Positions 1-10,281 of a stretch of 64,000 nt of DNA are shown here, piece by piece. The notes beneath the pieces are model-generated. The model did not search any database. It was not told where the DNA came from and saw only the letters and a program-made list of their open reading frames with translations. Position numbers and translations under genes: made by a program. Each line of letters starts with the position of its first letter. The stretch's first letter is position 1. The DNA lies in NCBI RefSeq assembly GCF_013167455.1, contig NZ_CP038328.1, one strand, 5' to 3'. The stretch comes from Escherichia coli O157:H7. GTDB lineage: Bacteria > Pseudomonadota > Gammaproteobacteria > Enterobacterales > Enterobacteriaceae.

Positions 1-1
1 A

Positions 2-1147
2 CTCGATGCCAGCGACTGTGAAGTATTAATGTCAGGTATTGCCGACGGTATTAACTCGGAAAATGCATTCTTATCCGTAAATGGGGGAGAGCCAGCACCG
101 CTGGCTCACCACAGCTACGAAGGTGCATTGAAGGCAATTGCATTTGAACTGGAAAAACGGAATTTAAATGACAGCGTGGCCTTAATTGGCCACCGCATCG
201 CTCACGGCGGCAGTATTTTTACCGAGTCCGCCATTATTACCGATGAAGTCATTGATAATATCCGTCGCGTTTCTCCACTGGCACCCCTGCATAATTACGC
301 CAATTTAAGTGGTATTGAATCGGCGCAGCAATTATTTCCGGGCGTAACTCAGGTGGCGGTATTTGATACCAGTTTCCACCAGACGATGGCTCCGGAAGCT
401 TATTTATACGGCCTGCCGTGGAAATATTATGAAGAGTTAGGTGTACGCCGTTATGGTTTCCACGGCACGTCGCACCGCTATGTTTCCCTGCGCGCACATT
501 CTTTGCTGAATCTGGCGGAAGATGACTCCGGCCTGGTTGTGGCGCATCTTGGCAATGGCGCGTCAATCTGCGCAGTTCGCAACGGTCAGAGTGTTGACAC
601 CTCAATGGGAATGACGCCGCTGGAAGGCTTGATGATGGGTACCCGCAGTGGCGATGTCGACTTTGGTGCGATGTCCTGGGTCGCCAGCCAAACCAACCAG
701 AGCCTGGGTGACCTGGAACGCGTAGTGAATAAAGAGTCGGGATTATTAGGTATTTCCGGTCTTTCTTCGGATTTACGTGTTCTGGAAAAAGCCTGGCATG
801 AAGGTCACGAACGCGCGCAGCTGGCAATTAAAACCTTTGTTCACCGAATTGCCCGTCATATTGCCGGACACGCAGCTTCATTACGTCGCCTGGATGGAAT
901 TATATTCACCGGCGGAATAGGAGAGAATTCAAGTTTAATTCGTCGTCTGGTCATGGAACATTTGGCTGTATTAGGCGTAGAGATTGATACAGAAATGAAT
1001 AATCGATCTAACTCTTTTGGCGAGCGAATTGTTTCCAGTGAAAATGCGCGTGTCATTTGCGCCGTAATTCCGACCAACGAAGAAAAAATGATTGCTTTGG
1101 ATGCCATTCATTTAGGCAAAGTTAACGCACCCGCAGAATTTGCATAA
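2..1147 (+). CDS. tdcD: Propionate/acetate kinase TdcD (5' truncated by window edge)
   Basis: Frame continues open upstream of the ORF-track start at 29 back to position 2 ([16 protein letters not shown]...); acetate-kinase-like sequence; position immediately upstream of tdcE as in the K-12 tdc operon. Confidence 0.88.
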
Positions 1148-1180: not shown

Positions 1181-3475
1181 ATGAAGGTAGATATTGATAC
1201 CAGCGATAAGCTGTACGCCGACGCATGGCTTGGCTTTAAAGGTACGGACTGGAAAAACGAAATTAATGTCCGCGATTTTATTCAACATAACTATACACCG
1301 TATGAAGGCGATGAATCTTTCCTCGCTGAAGCGACGCCAGCCACCACGGAATTGTGGGAAAAGGTGATGGAAGGCATTCGTATTGAAAACGCAACCCACG
1401 CGCCGGTTGATTTCGATACCAATATTGCCACCACAATTACCGCTCATGATGCGGGATATATTAACCAGCCGCTGGAAAAAATTGTTGGCCTGCAAACGGA
1501 TGCGCCGTTGAAACGTGCGTTACACCCGTTCGGTGGCATTAATATGATTAAAAGTTCATTCCACGCCTATGGTCGTGAAATGGACAGTGAATTTGAATAT
1601 CTGTTTACCGATCTGCGTAAAACCCATAACCAGGGCGTATTTGATGTTTACTCACCGGATATGCTGCGCTGCCGTAAATCTGGCGTGCTGACCGGTTTAC
1701 CAGATGGCTATGGCCGTGGGCGCATTATCGGTGACTATCGCCGCGTAGCGCTGTATGGCATCAGTTATCTGGTGCGTGAACGCGAACTGCAATTTGCCGA
1801 TCTCCAGTCTCGTCTGGAAAAAGGCGAGGATCTGGAAGCCACCATCCGTCTGCGTGAGGAGCTGGCAGAGCATCGTCATGCGCTGTTGCAGATTCAGGAA
1901 ATGGCGGCGAAATATGGCTTTGATATCTCTCGCCCGGCGCAGAATGCGCAGGAAGCGGTGCAGTGGCTCTACTTCGCTTATCTGGCGGCAGTGAAATCAC
2001 AGAACGGCGGCGCGATGTCGCTGGGCCGCACGGCATCGTTCCTGGATATCTACATTGAGCGCGACTTTAAAGCTGGCGTACTCAATGAGCAGCAGGCACA
2101 GGAACTGATCGATCACTTCATCATGAAGATCCGTATGGTGCGCTTCTTGCGTACGCCGGAATTTGATTCGCTGTTCTCCGGCGACCCAATCTGGGCGACG
2201 GAAGTGATCGGCGGGATGGGGCTGGACGGTCGTACGCTGGTGACCAAAAACTCCTTCCGCTATTTGCACACCCTGCACACTATGGGGCCTGCACCGGAAC
2301 CTAACCTGACCATTCTTTGGTCGGAAGAATTACCGATTGCCTTCAAAAAATATGCCGCGCAGGTGTCGATCGTCACCTCTTCCTTGCAGTATGAAAACGA
2401 CGATCTGATGCGTACTGACTTCAACAGCGACGATTACGCGATTGCCTGCTGCGTCAGCCCAATGGTGATTGGTAAGCAAATGCAGTTCTTTGGTGCACGC
2501 GCTAACCTGGCGAAAACACTGCTGTACGCAATTAACGGCGGGGTGGACGAGAAGCTGAAGATTCAGGTCGGGCCGAAAACGGCACCGTTGATGGACGATG
2601 TGCTGGATTACGACAAAGTGATGGACAGCCTCGATCACTTCATGGACTGGCTGGCGGTGCAGTACATCAGCGCGCTGAATATCATTCACTACATGCACGA
2701 CAAGTACAGCTACGAAGCTTCGCTGATGGCGCTGCACGATCGTGATGTCTATCGCACCATGGCGTGCGGCATCGCGGGCCTGTCGGTGGCAACGGACTCC
2801 CTGTCTGCGATCAAATATGCCCGCGTGAAACCAATCCGTGACAAAAACGGCCTGGCGGTGGACTTTGAAATCGACGGTGAATATCCGCAGTACGGCAACA
2901 ACGACGAGCGCGTAGACAGCATTGCCTGCGACCTGGTTGAACGTTTTATGAAGAAAATTAAAGCGCTGCCAACCTATCGCAACGCCGTCCCTACCCAGTC
3001 GATTCTGACTATCACTTCTAACGTGGTGTACGGCCAGAAAACCGGTAACACGCCGGACGGTCGTCGCGCCGGAACACCGTTCGCGCCGGGCGCTAACCCG
3101 ATGCATGGTCGTGACCGCAAAGGTGCCGTGGCCTCATTGACGTCGGTGGCGAAACTGCCGTTCACCTACGCCAAAGATGGGATCTCGTACACCTTCTCAA
3201 TCGTCCCTGCGGCGCTGGGCAAAGAAGATCCAGTACGTAAAACCAACCTTGTCGGCCTGCTGGATGGGTATTTCCACCACGAAGCGGATGTCGAAGGCGG
3301 TCAACACCTCAACGTCAACGTAATGAATCGGGAAATGCTGCTGGATGCCATCGAGCACCCGGAAAAATATCCTAACCTGACAATCCGTGTCTCTGGCTAC
3401 GCCGTGCGCTTCAACGCACTGACCCGTGAACAGCAGCAGGATGTTATTTCACGTACCTTTACCCAGGCGCTCTGA
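1181..3475 (+). CDS. tdcE: 2-ketobutyrate/pyruvate formate-lyase, glycyl radical enzyme
   Basis: 764 aa ORF; C-terminal glycyl radical motif RVSGYAVRF and active-site Cys-Cys (IACCVSPM) visible in the translation; length equals K-12 TdcE. Confidence 0.93.
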
Positions 3476-3488
3476 CGCCGGAGGATGT

Positions 3489-3878
3489 ATGAAAAAGATT
3501 ATCGAAACGCAACGTGCCCCAGGCGCAATCGGCCCTTATGTTCAAGGCGTTGATTTAGGCAGCATGGTCTTCACCTCCGGTCAAATTCCGGTTTGCCCAC
3601 AGACCGGTGAGATCCCGGCTGATGTGCAAGATCAGGCGCGTTTAAGCCTCGAAAACGTCAAAGCGATCGTGGTTGCTGCCGGGCTGAGCGTGGGCGATAT
3701 CATCAAGATGACCGTGTTCATCACCGATCTGAATGATTTTGCCACCATCAACGAAGTCTATAAGCAATTCTTCGATGAGCATCAGGCGACCTACCCGACC
3801 CGGAGCTGTGTACAGGTCGCGCGTTTGCCGAAAGATGTGAAGCTGGAAATTGAAGCTATCGCAGTACGTAGTGCGTAA
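3489..3878 (+). CDS. tdcF: RidA/YjgF-family enamine/imine deaminase
   Basis: ORF track starts at 3426; trimmed to the ATG at 3489 (MKKIIETQRAPGAIGPY...) giving 129 aa with GGAGG RBS directly upstream. Confidence 0.9.
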   Translation: MKKIIETQRAPGAIGPYVQGVDLGSMVFTSGQIPVCPQTGEIPADVQDQARLSLENVKAIVVAAGLSVGDIIKMTVFITDLNDFATINEVYKQFFDEHQATYPTRSCVQVARLPKDVKLEIEAIAVRSA

Positions 3879-3949: not shown

Positions 3950-5314
3950 ATGATTAGTGCATTCGATATTTTCAAAATTGGGATTGGTCCCTCCAGTTCG
4001 CATACCGTGGGGCCAATGAATGCCGGAAAAAGTTTTATTGATCGGCTGGAAAGTAGCGGCTTATTAACCGCGACGAGCCATATTGTGGTCGATCTGTACG
4101 GGTCGTTGTCACTGACGGGCAAAGGCCATGCCACGGATGTCGCCATCATCATGGGACTGGCAGGAAACAGTCCGCAGGATGTTGTCATTGATGAGATCCC
4201 TGCATTTATAGAGTTAGTAACGCGCAGCGGGCGGCTGCCAGTGGCATCTGGTGCGCATATTGTTGATTTTCCTGTAGCAAAGAACATTATCTTCCATCCC
4301 GAAATGTTGCCTCGCCATGAGAACGGAATGCGGATCACTGCCTGGAAGGCACAGGAAGAGCTATTAAGTAAAACCTATTACTCTGTCGGCGGCGGGTTTA
4401 TTGTCGAAGAAGAACACTTCGGCCTGTCGCACGATGTCGAAACACCCGTACCTTACGATTTCCACTCAGCAGGTGAACTGCTGAAAATGTGTGATTACAA
4501 CGGCCTGTCTATTTCTGGCCTGATGATGCACAACGAGCTAGCGCTGCGCAGTAAAGCGGAAATTGACGCCGGTTTTGCCCGTATCTGGCAAGTGATGCAT
4601 GACGGTATTGAACGCGGGATGAACACTGAAGGCGTGCTGCCTGGTCCGCTCAATGTGCCGCGCCGTGCCGTAGCGCTGCGTCGTCAGCTGGTTTCCAGCG
4701 ATAACATCTCTAACGATCCGATGAATGTCATCGACTGGATCAACATGTACGCGCTGGCGGTTAGTGAAGAAAACGCAGCTGGCGGGCGCGTGGTAACGGC
4801 ACCGACTAACGGTGCGTGCGGCATTATTCCGGCAGTGCTGGCTTATTACGATAAGTTCCGTCGTCCGGTAAACGAGCGGTCAATTGCCCGCTATTTTCTT
4901 GCAGCCGGGGCTATTGGCGCGCTGTATAAAATGAACGCCTCCATCTCTGGCGCGGAGGTCGGCTGTCAGGGGGAGATTGGCGTGGCCTGTTCAATGGCGG
5001 CGGCAGGGTTAACTGAACTACTGGGCGGCAGTCCGGCGCAGGTATGCAATGCGGCGGAAATCGCGATGGAGCATAACCTTGGACTGACCTGCGAGCCGGT
5101 TGCCGGACAGGTACAAATCCCGTGCATTGAACGTAATGCCATTAATGCCGTGAAAGCAGTAAACGCCGCGCGGATGGCGATGCGCCGCACCTCGGCACCG
5201 CGTGTTTCACTCGATAAAGTGATCGAGACGATGTATGAAACCGGCAAAGATATGAACGATAAATACCGCGAAACATCACGCGGCGGACTGGCCATTAAAG
5301 TGGTCTGCGGCTGA
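3950..5314 (+). CDS. tdcG: L-serine dehydratase (Fe-S), TdcG
   Basis: ORF track starts at a GTG (3944); ATG at 3950 gives [23 protein letters not shown], 454 aa as in K-12; RBS GAGGGTG upstream. Confidence 0.9.
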
Positions 5315-5338
5315 CATTGCTGTCAGCTTTCATCCTTG

Positions 5339-5365
5339 GGTGCACAAATGTGCACCTTTTTTTTG
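5339..5365 (+). terminator. Rho-independent terminator after tdcG
   Basis: GGTGCACA-AA-TGTGCACC hairpin followed by T8 run. Confidence 0.65.
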
Positions 5366-5588
5366 TGATCTGCCGCAAATAGAGAGTGAATATTCTCTTG
5401 CGATTAATTTAGTAGAAAATTCTTATCCATCTCCGTTATTTCAAAGTCTTGATTGTGAAGATTTTCTCTGACCTCGCGCGTATCATTTCTTTATTCTAAT
5501 AACTCGCCTGCAAAAACGTAGACCGCATATCGCCTTGATGCGGCTCGGAAAAAAATAATAAGCCCTACAAAATATTGAGCGAGAAATT

Positions 5589-6920
5589 ATGGAAATTGCA
5601 TCGAATAAAGGCGTCATTGCAGACGCTTCGACCCCGGCGGGTCGTGCTGGAATGAGTGAGAGCGAGTGGCGAGAAGCGATCAAATTCGACAGTACTGACA
5701 CCGGCTGGGTGATTATGAGTATCGGGATGGCGATTGGCGCGGGGATTGTTTTTCTCCCGGTGCAGGTCGGTTTGATGGGATTGTGGGTATTTTTGCTCTC
5801 ATCGGTGATTGGTTACCCGGCAATGTATCTGTTTCAGCGGTTGTTTATTAATACGCTGGCAGAATCACCAGAATGTAAAGATTACCCGAGCGTCATTAGC
5901 GGTTATTTAGGTAAAAACTGGGGCATCCTGTTAGGTGCACTCTATTTCGTAATGCTGGTGATTTGGATGTTCGTCTATTCCACCGCCATCACCAACGATA
6001 GTGCTTCCTACCTGCATACCTTCGGCGTGACGGAAGGGTTGCTGTCAGACAGTCCCTTTTATGGTCTGGTACTGATTTGCATTCTGGTGGCGATCTCTTC
6101 ACGCGGCGAGAAATTGTTATTCAAAATTTCGACTGGCATGGTGCTGACCAAGCTGCTGGTGGTCGCGGCGCTGGGCGTGTCGATGGTGGGAATGTGGCAT
6201 CTGTATAACGTCGGTTCGCTACCGCCGCTGGGGCTGCTGGTGAAAAACGCTATTATTACGCTGCCGTTTACCCTGACGTCGATTCTGTTTATCCAGACGT
6301 TAAGCCCGATGGTGATCTCTTATCGCTCGCGGGAAAAATCGATTGAAGTAGCGCGGCATAAAGCATTGCGGGCAATGAATATCGCGTTTGGCATTTTGTT
6401 TATCATCGTCTTTTTCTACGCCGTGTCGTTCACGCTGGCGATGGGACATGACGAAGCGGTAAAAGCCTACGAGCAGAATATTTCCGCGCTGGCGATTGCC
6501 GCACAGTTTATTAGCGGTGACGGCGCAGCGTGGGTGAAAGTGGTCAGCGTCATTCTCAATATCTTTGCTGTCATGACTGCATTCTTTGGCGTCTATTTAG
6601 GTTTTCGCGAAGCAACGCAAGGGATCGTAATGAACATCCTGCGTCGCAAGATGCCTGCCGAGAAGATTAACGAAAATCTTGTTCAGCGCGGCATCATGAT
6701 TTTCGCCATTTTGCTGGCCTGGAGCGCCATCGTACTGAACGCACCGGTGTTGAGCTTCACCTCTATCTGTAGCCCGATTTTCGGCTTGGTAGGGTGCCTG
6801 ATCCCGGCGTGGCTGGTTTACAAAGTACCGGCATTGCACAAATACAAAGGGATGTCTCTGTACCTGATTATCGTCACTGGTTTGTTGCTTTGTGTTTCTC
6901 CGTTCCTGGCATTTTCTTGA
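5589..6920 (+). CDS. yhaO: Amino-acid (serine/cysteine) inner-membrane transporter YhaO (alias CyuP/DlsT)
   Basis: 443 aa, multi-pass hydrophobic protein; matches K-12 length and position upstream of yhaM. Confidence 0.85.
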   Translation: MEIASNKGVIADASTPAGRAGMSESEWREAIKFDSTDTGWVIMSIGMAIGAGIVFLPVQVGLMGLWVFLLSSVIGYPAMYLFQRLFINTLAESPECKDYPSVISGYLGKNWGILLGALYFVMLVIWMFVYSTAITNDSASYLHTFGVTEGLLSDSPFYGLVLICILVAISSRGEKLLFKISTGMVLTKLLVVAALGVSMVGMWHLYNVGSLPPLGLLVKNAIITLPFTLTSILFIQTLSPMVISYRSREKSIEVARHKALRAMNIAFGILFIIVFFYAVSFTLAMGHDEAVKAYEQNISALAIAAQFISGDGAAWVKVVSVILNIFAVMTAFFGVYLGFREATQGIVMNILRRKMPAEKINENLVQRGIMIFAILLAWSAIVLNAPVLSFTSICSPIFGLVGCLIPAWLVYKVPALHKYKGMSLYLIIVTGLLLCVSPFLAFS

Positions 6921-6947
6921 TTTACCTGAAATTTTAAGGTTTTTAAT

Positions 6948-8258
6948 ATGTTTGATTCGACTTTAAATCCGTTATGGCAGCGTTACATCCTCGCCGTTCA
7001 GGAGGAAGTAAAACCGGCGCTGGGATGTACTGAACCGATTTCACTGGCGCTGGCGGCGGCGGTTGCTGCGGCAGAACTGGAAGGTCCGGTTGAACGTGTA
7101 GAAGCCTGGGTTTCGCCAAATCTGATGAAGAACGGTCTGGGCGTCACCGTTCCCGGCACGGGAATGGTGGGGCTGCCGATTGCGGCGGCGCTGGGGGCGT
7201 TAGGTGGAAATGCCAACGCCGGGCTGGAAGTGCTGAAAGACGCAACTGCGCAGGCAATTGCCGATGCCAAAGCACTGCTGGCGGCGGGGAAAGTCTCCGT
7301 TAAGATCCAGGAACCTTGCAATGAAATCCTCTTCTCACGCGCCAAAGTCTGGAACGGTGAGAAGTGGGCGTGTGTCACTATCGTCGGCGGGCATACCAAC
7401 ATTGTGCATATTGAGACGCACGATGGTGTGGTGTTTACCCAGCAGGCGTGTGTGGCAGAGGGCGAGCAAGAGTCTCCGCTATCGGTGCTTTCCAGAACGA
7501 CGCTGGCTGAGATCCTGAAGTTCGTCAATGAAGTCCCGTTTGCGGCGATCCGCTTTATTCTCGATTCCGCGAAGCTAAATTGTGCGTTATCGCAGGAAGG
7601 TTTGAGCGGTAAGTGGGGGCTGCATATTGGCGCGACGCTGGAAAAACAGTGCGAGCGCGGTTTGCTGGCGAAAGATCTCTCTTCATCCATTGTGATTCGT
7701 ACCAGCGCGGCATCCGATGCGCGTATGGGCGGCGCCACGCTTCCGGCAATGAGTAACTCCGGCTCGGGTAACCAGGGGATCACCGCAACAATGCCCGTGG
7801 TGGTGGTAGCAGAACACTTCGGAGCGGATGATGAACGGCTGGCGCGTGCGCTGATGCTTTCTCATTTGAGCGCAATTTACATCCATAACCAGTTACCGCG
7901 TTTGTCTGCGCTGTGTGCCGCAACGACCGCAGCAATGGGGGCCGCCGCCGGGATGGCATGGCTGGTGGATGGGCGTTATGAAACCATCTCGATGGCGATC
8001 AGCAGTATGATCGGCGATGTCAGCGGCATGATTTGCGATGGTGCGTCGAACAGCTGCGCGATGAAGGTTTCGACCAGTGCTTCGGCTGCGTGGAAAGCGG
8101 TGTTAATGGCGCTGGATGATACCGCCGTGACCGGCAATGAAGGGATCGTGGCGCATGATGTTGAGCAGTCGATTGCCAACCTGTGTGCGTTAGCAAGCCA
8201 TTCGATGCAGCAAACGGATCGGCAGATTATCGAGATTATGGCGAGCAAGGCCAGATAA
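6948..8258 (+). CDS. yhaM: L-cysteine desulfidase YhaM (alias CyuA)
   Basis: 436 aa; conserved cysteines ([11 protein letters not shown]); gene order yhaO-yhaM. Confidence 0.85.
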
Positions 8259-8279
8259 ACGCCAGGTTTTGGGTATCGT

Positions 8280-8384
8280 GCCGGATGCGATGCTGGCGCA
8301 TCTTATCCGGCCTACGGGTTGTTTAATTCGTTAATGTTGTTGGATTTTGTAGGCCGGATAAGGCGTTTTCGCCGCATCCGGCAA
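8280..8384. repeat. REP/BIME palindromic elements (two inverted REP units)
   Basis: GCCGGATGCG...CTTATCCGGCCTAC and GTAGGCCGGATAAGGCG...GCATCCGGCAA consensus REP sequences. Confidence 0.75.
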
Positions 8385-8391
8385 CCTGTCT

Positions 8392-8559
8392 TTACGCGGT
8401 AGCTTCATCCTCGGCTAAACGCGTTTCAGCATCCGCGACGATGGCTTCCAGCTCGCTCAACATCTCTTCATAGCCAAAATTTTTGGCGGTGCGAGCAGGT
8501 TCTTTCGCCACCACGGGCTTCACTGGCTGGCGCTTTTTGGCCGATTTTTTACTCATCAT
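8392..8559 (-). CDS. yhaL: Small protein YhaL (about 54 aa; not in ORF track because under 60 aa)
   Basis: Minus-strand ORF MMSKKSAKKRQPVKPVVAKEPARTAKNFGYEEMLSELEAIVADAETRLAEDEATA; AGGGAG RBS directly upstream of three consecutive ATG codons (8554-8562); exact start ambiguous. Confidence 0.65.
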   Translation of the reverse strand: MMSKKSAKKRQPVKPVVAKEPARTAKNFGYEEMLSELEAIVADAETRLAEDEATA

Positions 8560-8578: not shown

Positions 8579-9280
8579 CTAGACAGGCAAATCTATCAGC
8601 AAAGCGCGCAGTGGGGAATCGGCAACCAGCGTAATGTTAGCCTCGTCACGAATAAACGCCCCATCACCGCAGGTCAGCGCCGCTTTCTCTTCATGATGCG
8701 TAAGCGCATGAAATTTCCCGTGAATCGATTGCAAATACGTGCGTGGCCCATGCAACTGGAAATTCGCACTTTCGCCTTTGTCGAGCACGATATGGTGCAG
8801 CCACACTTGCTGGCGTAATTGCAGGCTTCCCATCGCACCCTCTGGCGAGGCGATTAAATGCTGCTTGCCCATATTAAGCGCCAGTTTTTGAATCAGCGGA
8901 TTCTCTCGCTGCGGGCAGGCGTCCAGCCAAAGCTGCATTCGTGTTAACGGTTTGTCTTTGCTGAGATTGTGTTCGCTGTAGCTGACACCCGGCTGGGTAG
9001 AGAGCAGCAACGCCTCACCGGCGCTGGCCTGAACATGATTGCCTTCGCTGTCGCGATACTCTGCTTCTCCATCCAGAATCACATTTAAAATATCGACTTT
9101 GGGATAGGTTCGCGGCTGAAAGGCGGCACCTGGGGCCAGCACTTCCTGGTTAAGCACACGCAGGGAGGCATAGCCTAACAATTTCGGGTCGAAGTAGTGT
9201 CCAAAGGAAAAAGTATACCGGGCCTGCAACCATCCGTAGTCTGCTTGTCCACACTGCCTGGCAGTTCGGGTAGTAATCAT
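8579..9280 (-). CDS. yhaK: Pirin-like (cupin) protein YhaK
   Basis: 233 aa; divergent from LysR regulator yhaJ. Confidence 0.88.
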   Translation of the reverse strand: MITTRTARQCGQADYGWLQARYTFSFGHYFDPKLLGYASLRVLNQEVLAPGAAFQPRTYPKVDILNVILDGEAEYRDSEGNHVQASAGEALLLSTQPGVSYSEHNLSKDKPLTRMQLWLDACPQRENPLIQKLALNMGKQHLIASPEGAMGSLQLRQQVWLHHIVLDKGESANFQLHGPRTYLQSIHGKFHALTHHEEKAALTCGDGAFIRDEANITLVADSPLRALLIDLPV

Positions 9281-9384: not shown

Positions 9385-10281
9385 ATGGCCAAAGAAAGGG
9401 CATTAACGCTGGAAGCACTACGGGTTATGGATGCGATCGATCGCCGGGGCAGTTTTGCGGCGGCAGCGGATGAGCTGGGACGCGTGCCTTCCGCACTTAG
9501 CTACACCATGCAAAAACTGGAAGAAGAGCTGGATGTGGTGCTGTTTGACCGCTCGGGCCATCGCACCAAATTCACCAATGTCGGGAGGATGTTGTTGGAG
9601 CGAGGGCGCGTTTTGCTGGAAGCCGCAGATAAACTGACTACTGATGCGGAAGCTCTCGCGCGCGGTTGGGAAACGCATCTCACCATTGTGACCGAAGCGC
9701 TGGTACCGACACCTGCCTTTTTCCCGTTAATCGACAAACTGGCGGCAAAAGCCAATACCCAACTGGCAATCATCACAGAAGTGCTGGCGGGGGCGTGGGA
9801 ACGGCTGGAGCAGGGGCGGGCGGATATTGTTATCGCGCCGGATATGCATTTTCGTTCCTCGTCGGAGATCAACTCGCGCAAGCTCTATACGTTAATGAAC
9901 GTCTACGTTGCCGCGCCTGATCACCCGATTCATCAGGAGCCGGAACCGTTATCTGAAGTGACGCGTGTGAAATATCGTGGAATTGCGGTGGCGGATACCG
10001 CTCGTGAGCGCCCGGTGTTGACTGTACAGCTGCTGGACAAACAGCCGCGCTTAACGGTGAGCACGATTGAAGATAAACGTCAGGCATTACTGGCGGGGCT
10101 TGGCGTGGCGACGATGCCGTATCCGATGGTCGAAAAAGATATTGCGGAAGGGCGGTTGCGTGTCGTCAGCCCGGAATCGACCAGCGAGATCGATATTATT
10201 ATGGCCTGGCGTCGTGACAGTATGGGGGAAGCGAAATCCTGGTGTCTGCGGGAAATTCCCAAACTTTTTAACGGAAAATAA
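9385..10281 (+). CDS. yhaJ: LysR-family transcriptional regulator YhaJ
   Basis: 298 aa; N-terminal HTH (LRVMDAIDRRGSFAAAADELGRVPSALSYTMQKLE) typical of LysR family. Confidence 0.9.
   Translation: MAKERALTLEALRVMDAIDRRGSFAAAADELGRVPSALSYTMQKLEEELDVVLFDRSGHRTKFTNVGRMLLERGRVLLEAADKLTTDAEALARGWETHLTIVTEALVPTPAFFPLIDKLAAKANTQLAIITEVLAGAWERLEQGRADIVIAPDMHFRSSSEINSRKLYTLMNVYVAAPDHPIHQEPEPLSEVTRVKYRGIAVADTARERPVLTVQLLDKQPRLTVSTIEDKRQALLAGLGVATMPYPMVEKDIAEGRLRVVSPESTSEIDIIMAWRRDSMGEAKSWCLREIPKLFNGK

Follow-up and report, generated by a model that had tools for sequence, protein, structure and literature searches.

The window analysed here comprises 64,000 nucleotides of the chromosome of Escherichia coli O157:H7, and its first part holds the 3' end of the tdc operon followed by the gene pair yhaO-yhaM, also named cyuPA. 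Our interpretation, to which we assign a probability of about 0.88, is that these are two separate catabolic transcription units left adjacent by descent, i.e., the 3' end of tdcABCDEFG and the two-gene cyuPA operon. The tdc operon, serving the anaerobic breakdown of threonine and serine, ends at a strong intrinsic terminator just after tdcG, and cyuPA is transcribed from its own activator-dependent promoter, induced by CyuR when cysteine is present, with a need for CRP and an indirect action of FNR. CyuP imports cysteine and the oxygen-sensitive [4Fe-4S] enzyme CyuA splits it into pyruvate, ammonium and H2S, the pyruvate entering the formate-lyase and kinase type of fermentation which the tdc enzymes serve. 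The two units would be insulated and respond to different inducers, being related in function and partly in ancestry. What is common to them is global logic only, namely CRP dependence and anaerobic use. That the two units are neighbours, share their fermentation logic and are transcribed independently was already described by Zhou & Imlay 2022 (PMC9040844); the finding is in this respect ordinary, and as written it adds nothing to the biology of E. coli. New, and of modest value, are the synteny survey, the conservation of the terminator, the evidence for an autonomous promoter and two small regulatory leads, a CRP-like site and a leader hairpin. The gene identities, the terminator, the autonomous promoter fragment, the conservation of the promoter and the distribution of the synteny are established here or in the cited papers.

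Gene calls were taken from a list of open reading frames (ORFs) and from the RefSeq annotation of an identical O157:H7 locus (L001). The preliminary description had placed the pair at 5589-8258, which according to the ORF list and the annotation runs exactly from the cyuP start to the cyuA stop, and had identified yhaO-yhaM as cyuPA beside co-oriented tdcDEFG, with which annotation and family scans agree. Its picture of a contiguous amino-acid fermentation neighbourhood was also right and matches the published view (PMC9040844). Many O157:H7 genomes contain the RefSeq genes cyuP ("amino acid permease") and cyuA ("cysteine desulfidase") with 100% identity. When the 5-kb segment from tdcG through cyuPA to yhaK was used as query, many O157 genomes matched it with 100% identity, and 5354 of 5426 complete E. 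coli genomes had a single place covering at least 80% of it; the tdc-cyuPA arrangement is therefore not a chance feature of one strain. The two cyu genes are co-oriented and separated by only 27 bp (6921-6947), the terminator scan found no terminator-like site inside this gap, and co-transcription of yhaO-yhaM was shown by reverse transcription PCR (Connolly et al. 2016, PMC4699771). By gene orientation, gap, absence of an internal terminator and published co-transcription, cyuPA is a bicistronic operon. Compared with strain K-12, CyuP differs in 3 of 443 residues, CyuA in 2 of 436 and the spacer upstream of cyuP in 2 of 274 nt, and because of these small differences the results obtained in K-12 transfer to the present strain. 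TdcG has three amino-acid differences from its K-12 counterpart.

The spacer between tdcG and cyuP occupies 5315-5588. Behind tdcG the terminator scan found a hairpin at 5338-5357 running into eight T at 5357-5364. Folding of 5310-5375, a segment which also includes a first hairpin overlapping the tdcG stop codon, gave a minimum free energy of -24.5 kcal/mol (z = -5.07), and none of 200 shuffled sequences folded as well. About 223 bp remain from the terminator to the cyuP ATG, in line with the terminator and the 220-bp promoter region which had been described between the units. Conservation was followed in a scan for CyuA with one genome per species (GTDB), in which the neighbours known from E. 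coli were mapped; it returned 79 loci, all of them in Enterobacterales, with 59-98% identity. In 41 of the 43 loci which have tdcG or tdcE upstream, a hairpin with a T tract and a free energy between -12 and -21 kcal/mol was found 230-262 nt before the cyuP ATG, and two loci had an extra or alternative hairpin farther upstream of cyuP. The count comes from a fold-based detector, replacing an earlier one which demanded perfect stems at full extension and under-counted. The stems vary among genera (GGGTGCAC..., GGGCGCAC..., AGCCTCCTC..., AGCCCTGGCG..., CCCGCGC...), and loci which have lost tdcF and tdcG, e.g., in Enterobacter, carry a different hairpin after tdcE at an equal distance from cyuP. 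The terminator is thus retained between the units while its stem sequence turns over, even where tdcF and tdcG are gone. A search of 5200-5700 against Rfam with E up to 1 gave only four matches, none reaching the gathering score of its family: TarB, RyhB and STnc320 over the terminator region, on plus or minus strand, and RAGATH-21. They were treated as chance.

The promoter of cyuP works away from its neighbourhood. A published cyuP-lacZ fusion needs cysteine, CyuR and CRP, and control by all three is kept when the fusion sits at the lambda attachment site (PMC9040844). The forward primer of this fusion maps to 5004-5018 of the window and the reverse one stops at the cyuP ATG, giving a fragment of 5004-5591 which includes the tdcG terminator. 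We aligned 26 upstream regions from all four genomic contexts described below. A5458 and TTTCT at 5463-5467 are invariant across the 26 sequences, including those of Proteus and Serratia, and T5481, A5482 and T5486 (TAnnnT) are invariant in both alignments made (A1 and A2), again including Proteus and Serratia, which have no tdc genes upstream. As TAnnnT and TTTCT are conserved in these tdc-free genera, the promoter belongs to cyuPA and not to the tdc neighbourhood. The predicted -10 hexamer was assigned from this conservation, and the predicted start of transcription lies at about 5492-5494. A promoter without a canonical -35 and without a sigma-70 match fits an activator-dependent cyuP promoter. 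The conserved element at about -35 is, from its sequence, a candidate CyuR-like activator site, since its centre (5453-5465) is similar to ATTGTxGxxATTT, the core of the CyuR motif as published. A CyuR site proper is not claimed for the spacer, where only this core is recognisable and the full motif has no match.

A second candidate lies farther upstream. The CRP-like site at 5364-5379 abuts the T tract of the terminator. In 50 of 68 Enterobacterales loci this position has a site with 8 or more of the 10 consensus matches, compared with 3.3% of random 90-nt windows; Proteus has none. Upstream of the predicted start, the distance of the site is about 120 bp, an unusually large one. Zhou & Imlay 2022 (PMC9040844) showed the CRP dependence of cyuP and left open whether CRP acts directly, and the site is a candidate answer to this question.

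These data bear on the possibility that tdc and cyuPA are coupled by read-through, in which a leaky tdcG terminator would let anaerobic induction of tdc prime the import and breakdown of cysteine, so that all genes form one extended operon. Such coupling was implied by the preliminary description, and it draws some support from the co-orientation of the genes only 274 bp apart, from the CRP dependence and anaerobic use of both units, and from the fact that no direct measurement of the junction was found in the Term-seq supplements. We nevertheless hold it to be highly improbable. A single tdc-cyuPA unit should have no terminator at the junction and no own promoter for cyuPA; both a terminator and a promoter are present. 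The terminator is strong, canonical and positionally kept in 41 of 43 loci despite turnover of its sequence, the promoter fragment is active alone at an ectopic site, the promoter is conserved where tdc is absent, and the two operons were reported to be transcribed independently, with tdc unaffected by cysteine (PMC9040844). The conserved terminator, together with a cyuP promoter core and leader kept in every context, therefore makes coupling by read-through unlikely. Held against independent regulation, which the preliminary description had itself named as the observation to contradict it, the coupling part largely fails.

Several points weigh against the interpretation of two insulated units. 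Intrinsic terminators are rarely fully efficient, and some read-through is therefore possible. The sigma-70 scan found no canonical promoter in the spacer, so that conservation is what the -10 assignment stands on, and the published CyuR motif GAAwAAATTGTxGxxATTTsyCC is absent from the whole window even when up to 3 mismatches are allowed. No published measurement of read-through was found, and neither tdcG nor cyuP or yhaO has an entry in the Term-seq supplements of Adams 2021. Finally, in enterohaemorrhagic E. coli (EHEC) the pair was given a role in uptake and sensing of D-serine, YhaM being without deaminase function on this substrate (PMC4699771), so that in this pathotype the pair may serve more than the fermentation of cysteine.

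The last point leads to a further possibility, that in EHEC the pair is mainly a module for D-serine uptake and sensing, formed by YhaO and YhaJ and tied to virulence control, and not a device for cysteine fermentation. YhaO is reported to carry D- and L-serine, with serine transport described in both EHEC and uropathogenic E. coli; YhaJ is reported to bind the yhaO promoter in EHEC and to activate LEE1, and yhaO mutants to show reduced type III secretion (PMC4699771), and yhaJ is located 1.1 kb downstream of the pair in the window. On the other hand, CyuP and CyuA are almost identical to the K-12 proteins, for which both import of cysteine and its oxygen-sensitive conversion to pyruvate, NH4+ and H2S were measured (PMC9040844). 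CyuA also keeps the N-terminal Cys/Glu pair (Cys23/Glu25 in the Methanococcus maripaludis enzyme, MmCyuA) which distinguishes desulfidases from L-serine dehydratases, where it is absent (PMC12647591), and YhaM was inactive on D-serine (PMC4699771). We regard a mainly D-serine function as unlikely; the D-serine and cysteine roles can coexist, in which case a pathotype-specific layer is added and the picture of the operon is unchanged.

The family scans fit the gene names. CyuP matched TIGR00814 (stp) over its full length with E = 2.5e-150 and 501 bits, slightly under the NCBI cutoff of 525.8, and gave no Pfam family at the 0.001 threshold of the Pfam scan. With 26% identity to TdcC (E = 1e-27) its homology to this protein is clear, and it is a TdcC paralogue. 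CyuA matched Pfam SDH_alpha over residues 91-428 (1.6e-58) and had no SDH_beta match in the same scan, whereas TdcG has both domains and passes the NCBIfam equivalog NF011614 with 1052 bits (cutoff 873). BLASTP found no significant pairwise similarity between CyuA and TdcG, and their homology is deduced only from the shared SDH_alpha domain and from published structures, in which CyuA is a structural homologue of L-serine dehydratase (PMC12647591). At the family level the two units are partly related by descent, with a permease and an Fe-S lyase in each. In a phmmer search against PDB, CyuA matched the solved L-cysteine desulfidase of M. maripaludis (9he0/9fsl) with E = 3.8e-28. Its ALGCTEP segment (Cys27, Glu29) aligns to ALGCTEV of the MmCyuA chain, so that the GCTE motif is kept, and Cys323 (SALCAAT), Cys363 (ICDG) and Cys370 (NSCAMK) align to MmCyuA cysteines. 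The [4Fe-4S] cluster is known to involve three conserved cysteines in CyuA (PMC12647591), and from the alignment these three residues are its putative individual ligands.

The 79 loci fell into four genomic patterns. In pattern A the order is tdcCDE(F)G-cyuPA-yhaL/K-yhaJ-...-yqjG, as in the window, and it was found in Escherichia, most Citrobacter, Salmonella arizonae and diarizonae (without tdcF), Yokenella, Trabulsiella, Pseudocitrobacter and one Enterobacter. In pattern B, tdcCDE-cyuPA-yhaKJ, tdcF and tdcG are missing; it occurs in Enterobacter, Lelliottia, Huaxiibacter and a metagenome-assembled genome of Pluralibacter, with cyuP placed about 274 bp after tdcE (L031, L038, L062, L065, L078 and others) or about 825 bp in some species. 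Three loci make up pattern C, where cyuPA-yhaKJ is present and no tdc was found within 8.6 kb. Pattern D, with cyuPA or cyuA alone and neither tdc nor yhaKJ, comprises eleven Proteus species, Serratia, Rahnella, Leminorella, Atlantibacter, Superficieibacter, Pluralibacter gergoviae, Kosakonia, Erwinia and one C. freundii strain. Most of these 79 loci have cyuP and cyuA together, and in a few cyuA stands alone. All tdc-linked loci in this sample have the common flanks yhaK-yhaJ-yqjG. Two records in the survey looked mislabelled or contaminated: a contig of "Chryseobacterium sp. 18061" (L063) with an enterobacterial cyuPA-yhaKJ-yqjG locus, and a 330-bp contig of "Bradyrhizobium sp. Ce-3" (L076) with 100% amino-acid identity to CyuA of the window.

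In pattern D the flanking genes are unrelated ones. According to Pfam scans, cyuPA is flanked by uvrA and an aminotransferase in Proteus, by a PepSY_TM protein and a LysR regulator in Serratia, and by a sulfatase and metF in Superficieibacter. In Atlantibacter (L023) cyuPA lies immediately downstream of genes for an acetyl-CoA synthetase and a sodium:solute symporter (Pfam) with a small ORF between them, which looks like the acs-yjcH-actP acetate-utilisation cluster. C. freundii M-21 (L022) has the same ORF sizes upstream of cyuP, a position unlike that in other Citrobacter. In Rahnella ecdela (L059, 2208-11305) cyuPA adjoins a gene for a 1743-aa TraI/TrwC relaxase, and a divergent RidA-family gene, 59% identical to TdcF, stands beside it; this suggests that cyuPA is carried here on a conjugative plasmid or an integrative and conjugative element.

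Plasmid copies were sought by tblastn of CyuA against PLSDB, and no plasmid copy of cyuA accompanied by tdc was found. The 67.6-kb "plasmid" record pRHBSTW-00016_3 of Enterobacter hormaechei (L083) has cyuPA-yhaK-yhaJ-DUF805-glutathione S-transferase directly after phage tail genes. These genes are normally chromosomal, and the record may represent a phage-plasmid or an excised region, or be an artefact of the assembly. A plasmid of Xenorhabdus sp. TH1 (L085, 2347-7338) carries cyuA with 64% identity and without cyuP, just downstream of genes for a cysteine synthase-family protein, a serine O-acetyltransferase and a DMT transporter. Genes for synthesis and degradation of cysteine thus stand side by side on this plasmid. 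A 49.5%-identical CyuA homologue, annotated as serine ammonia-lyase alpha subunit, recurs in plasmid records of Klebsiella, Citrobacter, E. coli and Enterobacter, and it seems to be present in most of the 128 PLSDB records with less than 60% identity. One such record was examined, the E. coli IncR plasmid NZ_CP107723.1 (L084, 6965-8242); here the homologue has no cyuP and is located between IS26/IS1 and a Mla-like ABC transporter.

The survey tests a speculation of Zhou & Imlay (PMC9040844), according to which tdc and cyu move jointly as a single transferable "amino-acid fermentation island" spreading as one block. The contiguity of tdcCDE(F)G-cyuPA in about 43 sampled species of several genera could be taken in this sense. 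However, in these genera the block occupies a single site of the chromosome, between tdc and yhaK-yhaJ-yqjG, which is what vertical descent predicts; outside of this clade cyuPA is found beside unrelated genes (Proteus, Serratia, Atlantibacter, Superficieibacter, Pluralibacter gergoviae, Rahnella, Leminorella), the mobile or possibly mobile copies (Rahnella, E. hormaechei, Xenorhabdus, IncR and other plasmids) are without tdc, and three loci keep cyuPA-yhaKJ without it. Within this sample the speculation is not supported, and we consider a common island very improbable. The tdc link is clade-specific, confined to the Escherichia/Citrobacter/Salmonella/Enterobacter clade and apparently inherited at one chromosomal site. 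Within the 79 loci and PLSDB the portable unit is cyuPA or cyuA alone.

The cyuP leader is conserved whether or not tdc is linked to cyuPA. Alignment A2 showed near-invariant CCTGC (5507-5511) and ATCGC (5529-5533), and a hairpin CCGCAT/ATGCGG (5523-5528/5538-5543) holds the latter in its loop. RNAalifold recovered only four invariant pairs on the leader, UCGC with GCGA, and no informative covariation; UCGC (5530-5533), which is within the AUCGC loop block, can pair with GCGA of the ribosome-binding region. As the register of the local hairpin moves from genus to genus, counting by alignment columns misses it, and folding was therefore tested per sequence: the hairpin with the ATCGC motif in its loop was predicted in 44 of 48 unique sequences, with arms differing between genera and a mean z of -1.84. 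Both blocks are complementary to the anaerobic small RNA FnrS, at nt 1-8 and nt 17-25 (the FnrS sequence being confirmed from K-12). The energies are unremarkable. In duplexfold 55-94% of window segments score as well as the leader, and the cofold energy difference of -10.5 kcal/mol is to be compared with a background of -7.5 +/- 2.9, equalled by about 16% of other 5' regions and 18.5% of shuffles. As the pairing energy is no better than background, only the conservation of the complementary blocks remains, and FnrS pairing is a weak lead. The literature links FnrS to cyuP, with a reported effect of FnrS on bacterial H2S production (Pieper et al.), and cyuP is among the suggested targets of RyhB (Georg et al. 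2019, PMC7154689). We put forward, rather tentatively and with more doubt than belief, that the leader (about 5493-5588) may by itself exert post-transcriptional control, through the conserved stem-loop and the CCUGC box upstream of it. If true, it would explain an anaerobic or iron input to cyuPA from FnrS, possibly RyhB, independent of the neighbouring tdc, and FnrS could dock at the hairpin to exert its reported effect on H2S production.

Among known systems the closest is the K-12 cyuPA (yhaOM) operon, regulated by CyuR/DecR (Shimada 2016; Loddeke 2017; Zhou & Imlay 2022). It has the same genes, order, spacing and neighbours as the present locus, with only strain-level substitutions; the D-serine, YhaJ and virulence role is reported additionally in O157 (PMC4699771). 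The tdcABCDEFG operon resembles cyuPA in being adjoined, co-oriented, CRP-dependent and anaerobic, with both pathways delivering a 2-oxo acid to formate-lyase/kinase fermentation, but it has its own terminator, is regulated by TdcA/TdcR in place of CyuR and responds to a different inducer (PMC9040844). The arrangement of an importer gene followed by the gene of the degrading enzyme is found also in sdaCB and dsdXA, from which cyuPA differs by having cysteine as substrate, H2S among the products and CyuR as regulator. SdaC belongs to the same permease family as CyuP, and SdaB is an Fe-S serine deaminase. Connolly et al. likened the co-transcription of yhaO-yhaM to that of dsdXA (PMC4699771). 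In a different genus, cdsAB of Yersinia ruckeri has homologues of cyuP and cyuA in one operon, with functions in cysteine uptake and virulence (PMC11408624). The M. maripaludis enzyme is of the same family as CyuA, sharing the GCTE Cys/Glu pair and the three further aligned cysteines, but it is archaeal, has 400 residues against 436, was proposed to serve sulfur mobilisation and not fermentation, and no cyuP partner was described there (PMC12647591).

Table 1. Coordinates of genes and of observed or predicted elements around cyuPA in the window.
Feature	Position	Strand	Basis and remarks
tdcD, propionate kinase	1-1147	+	RefSeq annotation of L001, ORF list; 5' end cut by window edge
tdcE, 2-ketobutyrate/pyruvate formate-lyase	1181-3475	+	Pfam PFL-like 3e-206, Gly_radical; annotation
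tdcF, RidA-family enamine/imine deaminase	3489-3878	+	Pfam Ribonuc_L-PSP 7.8e-45; annotation
tdcG, Fe-S L-serine ammonia-lyase, final gene of tdc operon	3950-5314	+	NCBIfam NF011614 and Pfam
First hairpin, GCTGACA-TTGC-TGTCAGC	5310-5327	+	RNA fold of 5310-5375; overlaps tdcG stop codon
Intrinsic terminator of tdcG/tdc operon	5338-5364	+	Scan and fold; 8-bp GC-rich stem, 4-nt loop, T8
Candidate CRP-consensus-like site, TGTGATCTGCCGCAAA (TGTGA-N6-GCAAA)	5364-5379		8/10 matches; 9/10 in most relatives
Promoter-proximal element, TTGTGAAGATTTTCTC	5453-5468	+	Conserved; candidate activator site at about -35
Predicted -10 hexamer of cyuP promoter, TATCAT	5481-5486	+	Assigned from conservation
cyuP leader blocks and predicted hairpin	5504-5543	+	Alignment A2, per-sequence folding
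cyuP (yhaO), serine/threonine-permease-family L-cysteine importer	5589-6920	+	443 aa; TIGR00814 stp
cyuA (yhaM), [4Fe-4S] L-cysteine desulfidase	6948-8258	+	436 aa; Pfam SDH_alpha
cyuA-yhaL spacer with REP-like palindromic repeats (gccggatg...catccggc)	8259-8391		Read from sequence
yhaL	8392-8556	-	Annotation
yhaK, pirin-like bicupin	8579-9280	-	Annotation, Pfam
yhaJ, LysR regulator	9385-10281	+	Annotation, Pfam; 1.1 kb downstream of cyuPA

Downstream of the operon, yhaL, yhaK and yhaJ are the conserved neighbours 3' of cyuPA in the synteny table. The convergent spacer between cyuA and yhaL is filled with palindromic repeats resembling repetitive extragenic palindromic (REP) elements, and the terminator scan gave weak terminator-like matches in it at 8305-8321.

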